A stretch of DNA of 44,832 nucleotides from a phage: sequence record PX055572.1. One strand, 5' to 3'. The notes below the pieces were generated by a model. That model was given only the letters and a program-made list of their open reading frames with translations. It had not been told where the DNA came from and did no database searches. Both the position numbers and the translations under genes were made by a program. Position 1 is the stretch's first letter; each line of letters opens with the position of its first letter. Positions 25,558-31,473 of the stretch are shown in pieces.

Positions 25558-25693
25558 ACTCTTCTGATAACTTCTCCAGTACAAACGCCAGTTGCGCATT
25601 AGCGGCGTCTCTTTGCTGACGTAGCCGCAGAACCTCTTCTTCGAGTTCCTTGATACGTTTTTGCAATGCCGGAATTGGGGCTATGATGTTCAT
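25556..25693 (-). CDS. Small coiled-coil protein (45 aa)
   Basis: MNIIAPIPALQKRIKELEEEVLRLRQQRDAANAQLAFVLEKLSEE; ATG overlaps Toprim gene stop (ATGA); verified codon by codon. Confidence 0.3.
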   Translation of the reverse strand: MNIIAPIPALQKRIKELEEEVLRLRQQRDAANAQLAFVLEKLSEE

Positions 25694-26205
25694 CTGGTAA
25701 ATTTCCTCGCAAGATACGTTATTTCTTCTTCACAAAGTTCATCGAGGTCGTTAGATACAAATCCTCTGGTGAATGTTTTGCTGAACTTTAAGCCCGCTTT
25801 ATCACTGTCACCGGCGCACACCCATTCATACGGCAAAAGTGACATTTGCTGCCGTAAGTCAGCTGGTATGTTCGACCCCAATGCGCTAACTGCATTAAAC
25901 CCGCAATTCATCAAAGCAACAGCTTTAAATATGCTTTCGGTAACAAATACCACCCCGCTACTTGGCAAATACTCAAGTCCCCATAAACACGGCCTTGTTG
26001 TTCGGGTAAAGTACCGCGCGTCTTTAGGGTTTTTACAGTTCTTTTCAGCATGCGGCTTGTAATGCTGGTATCCTCGTAGCCTGCCGTCAAAACCCCACAA
26101 GTAGAATGTAGCAACGCCAGGGGCTAAGACTACCTGGAGACGGTCTGCGTCAAAACCTCGTGACAGCAGATGCGCCTTAAGTAGAAACTCTTCGAAATCC
26201 ATCAT
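25690..26205 (-). CDS. Toprim-domain protein (primase-associated)
   Basis: Conserved Glu (VFVTESIF) and DxD (CAGDSDKAG) spaced as in Toprim folds; 171 aa. Confidence 0.45.
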   Translation of the reverse strand: MMDFEEFLLKAHLLSRGFDADRLQVVLAPGVATFYLWGFDGRLRGYQHYKPHAEKNCKNPKDARYFTRTTRPCLWGLEYLPSSGVVFVTESIFKAVALMNCGFNAVSALGSNIPADLRQQMSLLPYEWVCAGDSDKAGLKFSKTFTRGFVSNDLDELCEEEITYLARKFTR

Positions 26206-27626
26206 TTCTTACTCCTACGTTTCATATAATTAAGTAGTTCATCCTGTACAGACCTTTTCTCGTCGGTACGCGCGGCGACAACCTCGTCCAGAGTGTCTTT
26301 AGCAACGATGTGATAAAGGAACACCGGGCGCTCGTGACCCGCCTGTTTCTGGCGGACTGGGCCTATGCGCTCAACAACCTGCAAATAGTGCTCAAGGTTC
26401 CAGCCTTGCGAGATGAACGCCAGATGATGACCCCCGTCCTGTAAATTCAAACCATGCCCGGCTGACGCAGGATGCACGCATAAAATCTCGATTTCCCCAC
26501 GGTTCCACGCTTCCATCTGCTTGTTCCCCTTAGCGCCTTTGGCGAACGCCTGTGCCTGTGGGAATCGCTTAAGGATACGCTCCAGTTCGTGTTTAAACTG
26601 ATAGGCTACCAGCAACGGCGCACCCTGCAACTCCTCAACAATCGACTCGAGCGCATCCAGTTTCGTGTCGTGCACTTTCTCCCAGTCTTTGGTCGCTTCG
26701 CCATCCGGCCCTGACACATACACGGCACCAGATGCAATCTGCAAGCACTTTGAGGTCTTCGCCGCAGCGTTAGCCGCTTCAACTTCCCCGCTCTCCAGTT
26801 CTGCGAATAACTTCTCCTCCATATCTATGTACGCCTGACGCGCTTTCTTCGGCAGGTCGATTTCCACCGGTACGATAACAGGCGCTTCACAACCGAACCA
26901 CTCGGCGGCGTCAATCGTCAGACTGATGTCCTTCATCTTCTGGTGAATCTCGTTATCTGCACCAGGGCGGGCGTGATATTCACGTGCCATCGCAGATTTT
27001 CCTTTCTGTACCGAATTAAACCAGCGGTCGGTGAATGCTGTATACGACGAACCTAGGCGCTCGCCAGCGTCGATAAACCAGTTCTGGCCCCACAAATCCT
27101 TGAGGCCGTTTGGTGACGGTGTACCAGTCAGGTTAATAAAACGCTTAACCCTTCCGAAAGCCACTTTACTAAGCGCCTTTGCACGCTTGCTACCACCTGA
27201 ACGGCTGCGGAATGATTTAAGCTTCGTGCTTTCATCTGCAACGATAACCGTAAAAGGCCAGTCGTCTTTGCCGTAGTAGTCAATCAGCCACTCGATAACC
27301 TCATAGTTCGTGCAAACCACGTTAGCATCTGACTCCAGCGCTGCGATGCGGCGCTTCTCCGAACCAGTTGCATCTACGACACGCAGACAAGGGAATTGCC
27401 ATTTCTCTTGTTCAGCGGGCCACGTACCGGACGCAACACGTAACGGGGCAAGGATTAACACGCGGTCCTCTTCCGTAAGCTGCCCGTTGCGGAACAGGCG
27501 GTTGAGCACCCACATAGTGGAGGAGGTTTTACCTCCCCCCATTCCGCACCATATATTACAGCGCGGGTGTTGCAGCATAAACGAAGTCATGAGCTTCTGG
27601 TATTCGCGCCTTTGAAACTTACTCAT
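26202..27626 (-). CDS. SNF2/DEAD-like superfamily 2 helicase
   Basis: Walker A GMGGGKT, DEAD-like box IVADEST, C-terminal helicase motifs; 474 aa. Confidence 0.75.
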   Translation of the reverse strand: MSKFQRREYQKLMTSFMLQHPRCNIWCGMGGGKTSSTMWVLNRLFRNGQLTEEDRVLILAPLRVASGTWPAEQEKWQFPCLRVVDATGSEKRRIAALESDANVVCTNYEVIEWLIDYYGKDDWPFTVIVADESTKLKSFRSRSGGSKRAKALSKVAFGRVKRFINLTGTPSPNGLKDLWGQNWFIDAGERLGSSYTAFTDRWFNSVQKGKSAMAREYHARPGADNEIHQKMKDISLTIDAAEWFGCEAPVIVPVEIDLPKKARQAYIDMEEKLFAELESGEVEAANAAAKTSKCLQIASGAVYVSGPDGEATKDWEKVHDTKLDALESIVEELQGAPLLVAYQFKHELERILKRFPQAQAFAKGAKGNKQMEAWNRGEIEILCVHPASAGHGLNLQDGGHHLAFISQGWNLEHYLQVVERIGPVRQKQAGHERPVFLYHIVAKDTLDEVVAARTDEKRSVQDELLNYMKRRSKK

Positions 27627-28578
27627 TTACCGCCCCCATGAATGCCTTTATAAATTCAGCGGCTACTTGCGGGACGATGGCATTGCCGTAACCGCGCAAT
27701 CGTCCCACTCTGGCGGGTATCCCATTAGCCAGCGGGAATGTGCTGGGTTCAACTGGCCGGAACTTTCCATCCCTGCATCCGAGCCAGTCAGCATCTGACC
27801 AGAAGCTGTGATGCGGGTCGGCTTCGCCACCGGCGGTAAGTCGCTGTTGTCTGTTAGTTGCGCTATGGCCTGCGTTTGCAGATGCGTAGCCCGATGCATC
27901 GGCCTCCCACTGGTTCGGGGTGTCGCAAACACCCCGTCCATTGCCTTCGGCGTTTGCCACGCCGCCATCAAACCCTGTTCCGTAGCATAATCCAGACGGT
28001 CGAAGGTTCTGTCCTTCCCATCCTTGCGTATCACTGTCACCCCGCTGCCTTTGAAGTCGTTCGCTGTCGGTGTAGGCCAATTGGTGTGCGCCAAAGAACA
28101 GTCTGTCGCGTTTGTGCGGTGCGCCGACGCTACAAGCTGGGAGTACGGCAAACCCGACGGCGTAGTCTTCTCCTTCCAGGTGAGTTTGTAAATCGCACAT
28201 CCACGATTTTGCAATTGCTGGCGCAACCTGTTCCCCAAAGAGGACTGGAGGGTGGCACTCGCTGATGAGGTCGAGGAACACAGGTGCGAGGTGTCTCGGG
28301 TCGAACTGTCCGAGTTGCTTTCCTGCCGCGCTAAACGGTTGGCAAGGCGGGCTTCCCGTCCAGATAGGCGTATCTTCCGAAACTCCCGCAAGTCTGAGCG
28401 CGAGAGGCCAGCCGCCGATACCAGCGAAAAAATGACACTGGGTGAACCCGTCGAGGTCTTCTGGCTTAACTTCGGTAATGCTTCTTTCATCTACAACTCC
28501 AAAAGGTATATGACCCTGTTTTATTAGTTCACGCAGCCACGCGGCTGCGCCTTTATCCCATTCGTTGTAATAGTTCAT
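27619..28578 (-). CDS. DNA (cytosine-5)-methyltransferase
   Basis: Motif I FAGIGG, motif IV catalytic PCQ (SPPCQPFS), motif VI-like GEQV, motif VIII RDR, C-terminal [10 protein letters not shown]; 319 aa with Gly/Asn-rich variable region. Confidence 0.75.
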
Positions 28579-28766
28579 TTCGCCACCAGAACTAACTCTT
28601 TACGCCCGAATGCCGTAACGTTACCGGTTACATCTTCGATAACCAGTTTACCGTTTGACTCGACGAATACCGTATCAACGGCAACAGGGCGGCGGGTCTT
28701 AACGTTGAAAATCATGTCGCCCGGTACGATGTCACGTGCTGGTTTGCGGTCGTATTCGTGTTTCAT
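28575..28766 (-). CDS. Hypothetical protein (63 aa)
   Basis: SD AAGGAA upstream; directly downstream of promoter A; coupled to methyltransferase gene. Confidence 0.45.
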   Translation of the reverse strand: MKHEYDRKPARDIVPGDMIFNVKTRRPVAVDTVFVESNGKLVIEDVTGNVTAFGRKELVLVAK

Positions 28767-28796
28767 TTCTCAATTCCTTATATTGTTGGTGTAAGG

Positions 28797-29084
28797 CTAA
28801 CTATAATAGTTCGCTATTAGGGTGTCAACCTGTTTGAACGAACCAACTACAAAAACATTTGCACCACGCTTACGCATCCGCTCGTGCTCTCGTAACTGGT
28901 GCGGGTCAGGCTTCGTGCTTTCGTCTTTCTTCACCTCGACGAACCAGACGATGCCGCCAGGGAGAATTACCAGCAGGTCGGGAGCGCCGGAACGCCCCTC
29001 ATACACTATCTTACGAACGAGGCCACCAATGGCCTCGAATCGGTCTTTTGCGTATTTCTGTATTTTGCCCTCAGGCGTACTCAT
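28797..29084 (-). CDS. VRR-NUC domain nuclease
   Basis: PD-(D/E)xK-type core GAPDLLVILPGGIVWFVEVKK; ATG 29084 with SD GAGGGG (ORF track starts at upstream GTG). Confidence 0.6.
   Translation of the reverse strand: MSTPEGKIQKYAKDRFEAIGGLVRKIVYEGRSGAPDLLVILPGGIVWFVEVKKDESTKPDPHQLREHERMRKRGANVFVVGSFKQVDTLIANYYS
28800..28828 (-). promoter_or_regulatory. Promoter A: TTGACA-N17-TATAGT with palindrome in spacer
   Basis: As transcribed: TTGACA CCCTAATAGCGAACTAT TATAGT; between VRR-NUC gene and ORF 28575..28766. Confidence 0.6.
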
Positions 29085-29165
29085 CCACACACCCCTCACG
29101 TTTCGTATGTTCAGTACCGCAGCGCGGACAGATTCGACAGTCTTCTTCGTAGAACCAGTAAATTT

Positions 29166-29297
29166 TCATTCCAGCACCCACAGATAAATTGCGATGAACA
29201 TGCCCAATATGGCAACCATCATGCCGTATTGACCCTCGTGACAGTAGACACCTGCGGCAAATCCCGCCAGTACCGCGATAATCAGTTTACTTAGCAT
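29166..29297 (-). CDS. Small membrane peptide (43 aa)
   Basis: MLSKLIIAVLAGFAAGVYCHEGQYGMMVAILGMFIAIYLWVLE; start 8 nt beyond DNA polymerase stop; verified codon by codon. Confidence 0.3.
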   Translation of the reverse strand: MLSKLIIAVLAGFAAGVYCHEGQYGMMVAILGMFIAIYLWVLE

Positions 29298-31473
29298 AGC
29301 GTTTTAACTCCTGACCTTCCGCTACAAGAGGGAACCCCTCCGCCCATTCTGGTAATTCGCACATCAATCGCTCAAGCTCTGCGACATTGTATTCCGGCGT
29401 ATCTGGAGTTTCGCAGATAATCTCATCGTGGACATGAAGTACAATTGGATAACCGTTTGCTTCAACGTTAAGTAGCGCATTAGCCAGCAAGTCACGGCAC
29501 AGTGCCTGAGTGCAGTTTTCCACCAGTTTACCGGAGTAGGTGTACTGGAAGCCCCACTGCCTGGTTAACTGATTTTCACCCTGATACTTGATGCGCACGT
29601 TAGTAGAAACTTTTCCGTCTTCGTCTGTCTCTTTTGACACGCTCAACCCGACGCCCGGGTATGACATAACGCGACCTGACGGCAACGTCATGCGCAACCA
29701 CCAACCAGCGACTTTGTTGCCGTTGTTGTCTGTTTCTACGTTGCGAGAAAACTTAACCCCGCGAGGGCCAGCGGTGAACTCTTTCCCCGGATTACGGATT
29801 GCTGCCATAGCTGCGTCTTCAATATCGCGCCAGAATTGGACTATTGCAGGATTAGCTTCCCGGTACATGCGCTTTAAAGCGTCACAGGTGCGCCAAACTT
29901 TCTTATCAAGGATATATGAGGGTCGGTCATCTTTTTCACCAGGACGTGGTGGTCGCTTGGCTTCCTGAATACGCGCCCATTCGTATCCGCGTGCGGTAGC
30001 GGCCCAAATATGGTCCGGGAATGTACCGTCTAAAGTGTTAGTCATGTCATTCAAATCAAGACCTAAGTTTTTAGCAAACGTGACGAAAGCACCGACGCCC
30101 CCCGCGTAGCCGAGTCCCAGAACCATTGCTTTGGCTATTTGTCTTTGGTCCTTTGTTACGGCTTCATATGCAACATTGAACACCGTTGATGCGAGTTTCT
30201 TATACACATCAACCCCGTTTACAAATACTTCGATTAAATCGTCTTCACCCGCCAGCCACGCAAGACCGCGGCCTTCGACGTTAGAGTAATCGGCAACGAC
30301 AAACTTATGCCCTGCTTCCGGTATGATGCAGCTACGAACGGTCGATGCCGTTAGCTTGGCTACGTCAAATCGGCGGTGCGCCCGGCCCTTAAGTAACGCT
30401 GAAATGCCTTTATCCAGTTCATCATCGTGATAGTACCCACGCGCGAGGTTCTGCGGCTGAAAGCCTTTACCGGCAAATCGTAATGTACGCTTGGCTCCGC
30501 CGTACTGAATGCAACCACGACGGCGGTCGTCCGACGAGCGCCCTAACAGCAGCGGGTTATATTTCGTTGACGCTGTGGACGCGGCCCCGAGGCGCATTTC
30601 GATAATCGTGCGTGCGTCGTCCGGTAAATCATCATCCGCCAACAGGTCGTTAAGCGTAGACTTCTGCGCGTTGTGGATGCGGTGCGCTGGTGCAAGTTCA
30701 CGCAGAATCGGCAGGAAGTCTTTACCAGTAAGCGAGCCGCCGTATTTGCGCTGTGCTTCTTCCTGTAGCTGCGCTTTGTGCTTCTCCACGGCTTCAATCG
30801 CGGCTTCTGCCAGTGCAACGTCAACCTTAAATCCGCGGTCGTTAATCAACTGGTCCAGTTCCAGTACACGGTCTTCGAACTCGGAGTTACCCCAACGCGG
30901 CAGCTTATGGAAGACTTCACGCATCGCAGTGATGTCGCTCACGGCGTACCTGATGAACATCGCCCACTCGTCAGGGTGAGTTTCTGCGGTGTAGCGGCGG
31001 ATTTTGTAGTTCTTCGGCGTCGGTTTAGAGAAACGCTTAATCAGAGCCTTGCCGCGTTTATCTTTCGCGTTGTCTGCAGACACGCCCAGCACTTCGCACA
31101 GCGCATCAAGAGAACCCGGCAGCGCGTGACGGAACGCCCAAATCATAGTATCAATGGTGTTACTTACCGGAATATCAAAGTCCCAGCAGTGTTTCATGAT
31201 TAGGCGATCGAACATTGAACCGTTGTGCCATACCATCTTAATGCGGCTGTTGGGCTTAACAAGGCGGCGCAGTGCGCGGTGTAAATCCCCCGGCATGTCG
31301 CTGCCGTCGGTGCAATCCCATACCCGCACAGGTTCGTCGTCAAAAGCATATGTACAGATAAGCACTTCGGTTGACGGGTGTTCGGCGTAAGCGTAAGAAC
31401 CGACTTTCTTCAAATCGGCTTCTGAGAATGTTTCAAAGTCTAAGTAAAGCAATGTGTTCATAGTCTGTACCAC
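29287..31473 (-). CDS. DNA polymerase, family A, with 3'-5' exonuclease domain
   Basis: Exo I-like LYLDFETFS at N-terminus; polymerase motifs KAMVLGLGYAGG and HVHDEIICE; 728 aa. Confidence 0.85.
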   Translation of the reverse strand: MVQTMNTLLYLDFETFSEADLKKVGSYAYAEHPSTEVLICTYAFDDEPVRVWDCTDGSDMPGDLHRALRRLVKPNSRIKMVWHNGSMFDRLIMKHCWDFDIPVSNTIDTMIWAFRHALPGSLDALCEVLGVSADNAKDKRGKALIKRFSKPTPKNYKIRRYTAETHPDEWAMFIRYAVSDITAMREVFHKLPRWGNSEFEDRVLELDQLINDRGFKVDVALAEAAIEAVEKHKAQLQEEAQRKYGGSLTGKDFLPILRELAPAHRIHNAQKSTLNDLLADDDLPDDARTIIEMRLGAASTASTKYNPLLLGRSSDDRRRGCIQYGGAKRTLRFAGKGFQPQNLARGYYHDDELDKGISALLKGRAHRRFDVAKLTASTVRSCIIPEAGHKFVVADYSNVEGRGLAWLAGEDDLIEVFVNGVDVYKKLASTVFNVAYEAVTKDQRQIAKAMVLGLGYAGGVGAFVTFAKNLGLDLNDMTNTLDGTFPDHIWAATARGYEWARIQEAKRPPRPGEKDDRPSYILDKKVWRTCDALKRMYREANPAIVQFWRDIEDAAMAAIRNPGKEFTAGPRGVKFSRNVETDNNGNKVAGWWLRMTLPSGRVMSYPGVGLSVSKETDEDGKVSTNVRIKYQGENQLTRQWGFQYTYSGKLVENCTQALCRDLLANALLNVEANGYPIVLHVHDEIICETPDTPEYNVAELERLMCELPEWAEGFPLVAEGQELKRYAK

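Follow-up and report, generated by a model that had tools for sequence, protein, structure and literature searches.

The two-chain C5-cytosine methyltransferase M.EcoHK31I of E. coli HK31 (Lee, Kam & Shaw 1995) is an enzyme whose alpha and beta chains must associate and are both required for activity; beta is encoded entirely within the alpha gene in another frame, can be started from internal Met codons, and associates with alpha through its N-terminal part (PMC2836561, PMC3404938). M.AquI is split in its variable region, giving an alpha chain with motifs I-VIII and a beta chain with motifs IX-X (PMC3404938). Here we analyze a C5-cytosine methyltransferase gene in phage sequence record PX055572.1, all 44,832 nucleotides (nt) of which we call the window, and compare it with these and other described enzymes. 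A second long open reading frame (ORF) lies in the +1 frame inside this gene, and we propose that the locus probably encodes a two-subunit C5-cytosine methyltransferase, a single stretch of DNA being read in two frames (frame A for the alpha chain, frame B for the beta chain). The features of the gene on which this proposal turns are as follows.

27619-28578, minus strand: frame A methyltransferase ORF, the alpha chain of 319 residues (ORF list, PF00145, phrog_363)
27663-28490, minus strand: frame B ORF, the beta chain of 275 residues, +1 relative to frame A and wholly nested in it (ORF list, phrog_1008)
28488-28500, minus strand: Shine-Dalgarno sequence GGAG (28500-28497), 6-nt spacer and ATG (28490-28488), reading TTTGGAGTTGTAGATG; alpha codons 26-31, F-G-V-V-D-E
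27667-27693, minus strand: motif X of alpha, GYGNAIVPQ, with Y297, G298, N299 and A300 invariant in a five-phage alignment
27705-27752, minus strand: motif-IX-like segment of beta (translation and the sole hhalign match to M.HhaI)

The catalytic chain and the nested frame

The alpha chain matches Pfam family PF00145 (E=6.8e-16; 59 bits, cut-off 22) in a segment limited to alpha residues 72-166 and profile positions 64-162 of 324, and phrog_363 at 3.9e-86; against TIGR00675 it scores 36.3 bits, under the cut-off of 100.65. Its top sequence match in the PDB is the monomeric enzyme M.HhaI (6.1e-18), and hhalign aligns it to M.HhaI residues 3-181, which span motifs I-VIII, with 98.5% probability. 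A preliminary description of the locus had listed motifs I, IV, VI and VIII and a C-terminal motif in this gene, and translation confirmed every one of them, as FFAGIGG (I), PPCQPFS (IV), FGEQV (VI), PHKRDR (VIII) and GYGNAIVPQ (X). The first four align to the corresponding motifs of M.HhaI, so that the two enzymes share a catalytic core including the PCQ motif, and all four are invariant across five distant phages. In our model alpha would supply the S-adenosylmethionine (AdoMet)-binding and catalytic core of the enzyme by way of motifs I, IV (with the catalytic Cys in PPCQ), VI, VIII and X.

Alpha departs from the canonical layout, in which a recognition domain and motif IX stand between motifs VIII and X of the same polypeptide: its residues 170-254 are unconserved, and, unlike in M.HhaI, the recognition domain and motif IX appear to lie outside the catalytic polypeptide. 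M.HhaI also differs in the order of its first motifs. A motif II/III-like segment of alpha (YYNEWD...ERSITEV; window 28411-28572, minus strand; alpha residues 3-56) comes before motif I. Within it YYNEWD (residues 3-8) aligns with SNEWDK of M.HhaI (residues 36-47), yet it precedes FFAGIGG (residues 50-56), whereas in M.HhaI SNEWDK follows motif I; the hhalign alignment skips M.HhaI residues 34-68. The AdoMet-binding region of alpha thus looks like the product of a local permutation.

The preliminary description missed the 275-residue ORF that occupies the +1 frame inside the gene. Frame B has no stop over 828 nt, compared with 16 stops across the gene in the third frame. Beta matches phrog_1008 (1.8e-56), and its family comprises 16,881 protein clusters at 50% identity. 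With the C-terminal 175 residues of beta as query, tblastn found matches in 242 phage records, among them distant phages of Erwinia, Edwardsiella, Klebsiella, Salmonella (P2-like), Burkholderia, Rhodobacter and Pseudomonas, and searches of E. coli genomes and plasmids returned prophage or plasmid copies annotated "DNA cytosine methyltransferase". The two-frame layout recurs in each of four distant phages that we inspected by eye. In these, frame 0 carries motifs I-VIII, a low-complexity stretch and then FW.DADWL.CRDGK.RPVEP..FPL..G...RVGRLR.YGNA, and frame +1, open for 266-373 codons (474 in phage eiAU-183, where it runs into the next gene), carries GS.LY.LTWK..TP.G followed by WPTP.A.D modules.

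Frame B is longer still in some members of the family. In Edwardsiella phage eiAU-183 (L005 1225-2649) and some relatives it lacks a stop and continues in frame into the following gene, and at three loci (L014, L015 and L039) it extends 430-472 nt beyond the alpha stop. Predicted fusions join beta to a Dam-type N6-adenine methyltransferase (PF05869; P0247, eiAU-183) and to a DUF2800 / PD-(D/E)xK nuclease (P0254). A Pfam scan of nine long members of the beta family found PF00145 in none of them; two were fusions to downstream genes, the Dam and DUF2800 cases.

Two described systems share parts of this arrangement. As in M.AquI, the C5-methyltransferase of the window would be naturally divided into two chains that have to assemble; it differs in that motif X stays in the alpha frame and that beta is embedded in almost the entire length of the alpha gene. 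In the Rz/Rz1 pair of phage lambda one gene lies completely inside the other, in the +1 frame, and the two products work together. That overlap is under 200 nt, against 828 nt here, and its lysis function is unrelated.

Conservation of the two frames across loci

To follow the layout beyond the window, 80 diverse viral loci were fetched by frame-A patterns and 80 bacterial-genome loci by patterns in frame B only. The N- and C-termini of alpha share one frame, with the beta core in the +1 frame, in 87 of 87 phage loci and in 79 of 80 bacterial loci (166/167 overall), and this constancy rules out a sequencing error or a pseudogene as the source of the layout. The sole exception is a chromosomal copy in Erwinia tracheiphila (L096), in which the alpha N-terminal match, covering residues 3-87 only, is in the frame of beta; this frameshifted copy probably belongs to a prophage in decay. 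In 86 of 88 loci the open run of frame B reaches 230 codons or more (median 299 of 338), compared with a median of 62 codons for the longest open run of the third frame in the same set, and frame A is open in all loci.

The openness of each frame exceeds what the other frame would impose. We permuted the synonymous codons of frame A, with protein and codon usage fixed, in 77 loci less than 85% identical to one another. Summed over these loci, the stops expected in frame B in four regions of the gene were 37.9, 112.6, 75.0 and 51.9, and those observed were 1, 0, 0 and 1; the single stop against 37.9 expected belongs to alpha codons 45-100. The third frame was not depleted of stops (11.7 observed, 10.5 expected). 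In the reciprocal shuffle, which preserved beta, the middle region held no frame-A stop where 154 were expected, and its third frame holds 189.

That frame B is untranslated, its openness and conservation being a by-product of frame-A or nucleotide constraint or else an artefact of sequencing or assembly, is in our view very improbable. Shuffles that leave the alpha protein intact still expect many frame-B stops, the undepleted third frame shows no such effect, and the layout persists across isolates, RefSeq genomes and metagenomes and across alpha-, beta-, gamma- and delta-proteobacterial hosts. The middle of the gene, moreover, is conserved in beta and not in alpha, as the map of constraint below sets out. 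Two observations do fit a by-product or an artefact: at alpha codons 30-100 the conservation of beta stems from alpha, and one in-frame fusion of alpha and beta (P0101) proved to be a 1-nt deletion. We had considered P0101 as a candidate unsplit enzyme and rejected it. The deletion (GCGGCAGC to GCGCAGC) lies just past motif VI in Logan contig SRR8144447_757 (L090 ~1840-1860), and the alpha frame downstream is intact. Because the remainder of frame A is open and conserved, the deletion is to be read as an assembly error or a very recent mutation.

We mapped constraint along the gene by amino-acid conservation and by relative synonymous codon entropy across the 77 loci, which divides it into four zones before the beta stop.

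28270-28578, minus strand: segment constrained in alpha only (alpha codons 1-103; the II-like motif, I and IV), frame A entropy 0.74-0.89
28084-28269, minus strand: first doubly constrained zone (alpha codons 104-165, motifs VI-VIII; beta ~75-136), frame A entropy 0.55-0.61, frame B 0.43-0.47
27826-28083, minus strand: variable cassette constrained in beta only (alpha codons 166-251, the "Gly/Asn-rich region"), alpha unconserved with frame A still open, frame B entropy 0.80-0.82
27691-27825, minus strand: second doubly constrained zone (alpha codons 252-296), frame A entropy 0.36, frame B 0.31 (0.17-0.31 at the beta C-terminus)

Both frames are under purifying selection, in a complementary pattern. 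At alpha codons 1-70 the entropy of alpha is 0.85-0.89, and it drops to 0.55-0.61 over codons 111-165 and to 0.36 over codons 276-300. At codons 30-100 frame B, open from codon 30, is unconstrained in its own sequence (beta entropy 0.24 against 0.85 for alpha), and since alpha is conserved there the conservation of beta over this stretch is a by-product. In the first doubly constrained zone V118, A140, G142 and V151 of alpha are nearly fixed to one codon, and on the beta side the zone encodes a helix and hairpin (YKLTWKEK / PYSQLVAS). In the second, both translations are 80-99% conserved, and V276, P278, T280, F281, A284 and V291 of alpha use a single codon in all 77 loci. Past the beta stop only frame A is constrained, and the entropy of alpha returns to 0.77.

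Between the two doubly constrained zones alpha is rich in Gly, with 15 Gly and 6 Asn among the 86 residues from 170 to 255. The preliminary description gave it as a Gly/Asn-rich variable region of unknown specificity. The richness in Gly is real; a target-recognition domain of the methyltransferase polypeptide it is not, given that the region is unconstrained across relatives and that it is the +1 frame which is conserved and modular there. Because the middle of alpha is open yet unconserved and beta is conserved over the same nucleotides, the Gly/Asn-rich region is best described as an unconstrained read-through spacer in frame A. Alpha would read it as a Gly-rich stretch of no fixed sequence, and so reach its conserved C-terminus.

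Frame B also has a start of its own. A Shine-Dalgarno sequence followed by an ATG in frame B is found at alpha codons 19-45 in 52 of the 77 loci, against 16 expected from synonymous shuffles. The typical site in the family consists of AGGAG, 8 nt and ATG, is formed from the conserved alpha residues E-R-S...D-V, and is the position at which predicted proteins of the beta family mostly begin. Since this site is enriched and frame B is open from alpha codons ~20-40, the data point to independent initiation rather than frameshifting. The shuffles, the synonymous-site constraint and the enriched site all indicate that both frames are translated. In the window, beta would start at the Shine-Dalgarno sequence and ATG within alpha codons 26-31.

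Programmed frameshifting would account for the two frames differently. A +1 shift from A to B after motif VIII and a -1 shift back before motif X would give a single canonical chain with motifs I-VIII, WPTP modules, IX and X. Splicing the frames as A-B-A does restore the canonical motif order, and it places the motif-IX-like segment of beta ~12 residues before GYGNAIVP of alpha; an unsplit single-frame relative, moreover, is absent among the 167 loci. We nonetheless regard frameshifting as improbable. It does not call for a frame B that is open ~100 codons upstream of any sensible shift site, as the near absence of stops at alpha codons 45-100 demonstrates, or for the enriched start that frame B possesses; nor does it call for a frame A that stays open through the whole middle of the gene. 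At alpha codons 252-296 both frames are constrained where one would suffice. Synonymous entropy of 0.72-0.96 just past motif VIII argues that no conserved slippery site lies there, and the sequence ahead of motif X shows no X XXY YYZ heptamer.

The variable cassette and the proposed assembly of the chains

The beta-only zone behaves as an exchangeable unit. Among Kagunaviruses the nucleotide identity of the gene is 93-100%, but it falls to 0-75%, with indels, at alpha codons ~161-260. Loci with 67-71% identity in the alpha N-terminus match the first beta module of the window at 95-97%. The second (WQTPKAMDG...) occurs in just two other loci among 168 searched, at 84% identity compared with 60% for alpha. 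A middle region that is modular and horizontally exchanged has the pattern expected of target-recognition elements, and we infer that the WPTP modules of beta are probably such elements. Two metagenomic contigs (L037 and L038) that share the rare second module of the window at 84% identity have a stop codon in place of the conserved Trp that follows motif I (FFAGIGV*SY; alpha codon 57), with frame B intact.

Exchangeable modules have a precedent in the orphan, multispecific C5-methyltransferases of Bacillus phages SPR, phi3T and rho11s, in which short tandem modules of the variable region set target specificity. Those modules lie within the catalytic polypeptide and, in contrast to the window gene, are not known to resemble the WPTP modules in sequence or to be part of a dual-coding arrangement.

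The closer precedent is M.EcoHK31I, with which we compared the window gene by published description. Both have the layout of a two-polypeptide C5-methyltransferase in which alpha holds motifs I-VIII together with X, and beta is nested in another frame. Their sizes are also alike: alpha has 309 residues and beta 176 in M.EcoHK31I, and in the present family alpha has 274-340 residues and the beta core ~160-200. The two differ in setting, since M.EcoHK31I belongs to a restriction-modification system (YGGCCR) and the window gene is a lytic phage's orphan. The helix and hairpin of beta (residues 76-122) are a candidate alpha-binding element, if one reasons from the N-terminal part by which M.EcoHK31I beta associates with alpha.

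In the mechanism that we propose, beta would consist of a dispensable-looking N-terminus, the helix and hairpin as a probable contact with alpha, at least one exchangeable WPTP module as the probable recognition element, and a motif-IX-like C-terminus. Alpha and beta would then assemble into an active enzyme, as has been demonstrated biochemically for M.EcoHK31I, and the phage would methylate its own DNA and that of its host at a motif set by the beta cassette. That the chains assemble, that beta recognizes the target, and what purpose the enzyme serves are points that we infer from the layout.

Several observations weigh against this proposal. The evidence that beta is translated and functional is evolutionary throughout, and 25 of the 77 loci have no obvious Shine-Dalgarno sequence and ATG in the expected place. 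The first ~70 residues of beta are unconstrained, which the proposal does not account for. The beta profile has no match in Pfam, NCBIfam, PADLOC or the PDB sequences, and against M.HhaI its only hhalign match joins beta 245-263 to M.HhaI 272-290 (RKLHPRECARVMGYPDSYK) at a non-significant E=0.18 and a probability of 0.3%, and is suggestive by position only. The M.HhaI segment is one that we take to be motif IX. AlphaFold models of both chains are poor, with a mean predicted local distance difference test score (pLDDT) of 52.7 for beta and 43.6 for alpha, and they therefore support no interface between the two; the confident part of the beta model is the helix and hairpin alone (pLDDT 84-89). 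For M.EcoHK31I the predicted recognition domain is assigned to alpha in published work; here the middle of alpha is unconstrained and the variable cassette is in beta. Finally, the window gene is likened to M.EcoHK31I by layout and not by sequence. On layout, with motifs I-VIII and X in alpha and with a beta frame nested in the alpha gene and, on evolutionary evidence, translated, the assignment to that type is well supported.

Some of these points would also suit a frame B that encodes a real, separate protein and no methyltransferase subunit, an overprinted gene with, for example, a DNA-binding or anti-defence function. Such a protein could well lack significant similarity to described domains, as beta does, and could at times be fused in frame to other enzymes, as in P0247, eiAU-183 and P0254. 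We consider this unlikely. Of 167 loci, 166 have inherited alpha and beta together, even where beta patterns alone were used for retrieval, and alpha has no constrained sequence where its recognition domain should be. The alignment of the end of beta onto motif IX of M.HhaI, non-significant as it is, also leans toward a subunit. So does M.EcoHK31I, which has the same layout and needs both chains for methylation (PMC2836561, PMC3404938).

Genome context, annotation and meaning

The genes and signals around the two-frame gene are, in the order in which they are read:

29287-31473, minus strand: DNA polymerase
28797-29099, minus strand: VRR-NUC / PD-(D/E)xK nuclease, 95 residues from ATG 29084 or 100 residues from GTG 29099; a neighbour, outside the two-frame gene
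28828-28800, minus strand: predicted sigma-70-like promoter TTGACA-17-TATAGT (consensus scan, 11/12 matches)
28575-28766, minus strand: orf63, a small conserved ORF of 63 residues (phrog_4879, 2.7e-46)
26202-27626, minus strand: SNF2-family helicase, a neighbour (PF00176, 9.1e-13)
25690-26205, minus strand: Toprim protein

The 4-kb region around the methyltransferase shares 94% identity with Escherichia phages vB_EcoS-phiEc3 and phiEc4 and has matches in 474 phage records, most of them from Guernseyvirinae, and on this similarity the window is essentially the genome of a Kagunavirus, a lytic phage. By its sequence, the gene is a C5-cytosine methyltransferase gene without an adjacent restriction enzyme, in an operon with a helicase. 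The alpha start overlaps the orf63 stop (ATGA), and the SNF2 start overlaps the alpha stop by 8 nt (ATGAGTAA). The predicted promoter stands upstream of orf63, the methyltransferase and the helicase and is contained in the 3' end of the VRR-NUC ORF. The preliminary description had reported the 8-nt overlap, the promoter and the lack of a restriction partner, and these stand: both sequence features are present, and no restriction endonuclease adjoining the methyltransferase gene was recognised.

It had also placed a VRR-NUC nuclease next to the methyltransferase. A nuclease is indeed there, although the name needs qualifying, since the match to Pfam VRR_NUC (PF08774) is weak (E=0.0039; 17.7 bits, below the cut-off of 23.8) and those to PHROG nuclease families are strong (endonuclease family phrog_93, 1.8e-33; Holliday-junction-resolvase family phrog_5702, 1.8e-19); its homologues in E. 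coli prophages carry the PGAP name VRR-NUC. The further suggestion, that this nuclease could act on unmodified or branched DNA, is not supported as worded: nothing connects the nuclease with methylation status. Nor is a coupling to SNF2 and VRR-NUC a property of the methyltransferase family. Only 6-7 of 50 viral loci and 2 of 64 bacterial loci have a relative of either gene at a distance of up to 2.5 kb from the methyltransferase; the order PolA / VRR-NUC / methyltransferase / SNF2 recurs in some temperate E. coli prophages, and at other loci the methyltransferase has replication genes of P2 type or recombination genes of lambda type for neighbours. We therefore assign the linkage to a single replication module rather than to the enzyme. 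In two of the E. coli prophages with this order (L171 and L173) it adjoins an integrase, and an extra reverse-strand ORF of 321 or 930 nt lies between the methyltransferase and the helicase.

A methylase beside an SNF2 protein could recall a DISARM-like or Druantia-like system, and we reject this candidate: PADLOC gives generic, domain-level partial matches (DruM 1e-17 on the catalytic core, DrmMII 7.4e-06, DrmD 5.6e-09), with the other components of such systems unmatched. Self-methylation for anti-restriction, as the preliminary description suggested, is plausible. In the BASEL study Kagunavirus isolates were reportedly highly sensitive to the restriction-modification systems tested (PMC11990801), and protection, if there is any, must therefore be limited to the motif that the enzyme itself methylates.

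As first noted, the locus is an ordinary, already-annotated phage methyltransferase. The dual coding is another matter: no description of a nested gene in phage methyltransferases, or of the dual coding of this very large family of phages and prophages, was found in the literature searched, and the family is annotated inconsistently. PHROGs holds the two frames as separate, unlinked families (phrog_363 for A, phrog_1008 for B). In phage K1G, RefSeq calls both frames "DNA methyltransferase" and GenBank uses "Mte8-like protein"; in phiEc4 only frame B is annotated, in some other database records only frame A, and in an E. coli ECCTRSRTH03 prophage (L088 2954-4123) PGAP annotates a pair of pseudogene fragments. 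Thousands of records would be put right if the alpha/beta layout were recognised.

It is possible, though we put it forward tentatively, that this is among the most widespread and oldest of long same-strand overlapping gene pairs in double-stranded DNA phages (~830 nt, at least 16,881 clusters, reaching into prophages of alpha- to delta-Proteobacteria), with specificity residing in exchangeable beta modules over a stretch where alpha is a spacer. The family is a large natural data set of two functional proteins sharing ~800 nt, with clean zones of single and double constraint that are useful for testing methods to detect or design overlapping genes. Naturally heterodimeric C5-methyltransferases are used as scaffolds for targeted methylation, and if beta modules are interchangeable the family would offer many specificities for engineering. 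Since the middle of alpha is unconstrained here, the assignment of the M.EcoHK31I recognition domain to alpha deserves re-examination if the two are related; should our proposal be true and M.EcoHK31I belong to the family, the textbook placing of that domain would be wrong. For the phages themselves, the beta cassette, and not the annotated methyltransferase, would be the basis for predicting the methylated motif and hence the host restriction systems evaded or provoked, and, if the proposal is true, phages could give a fixed catalytic chain a new target by exchanging a cassette that carries meaning in only one of its two frames.

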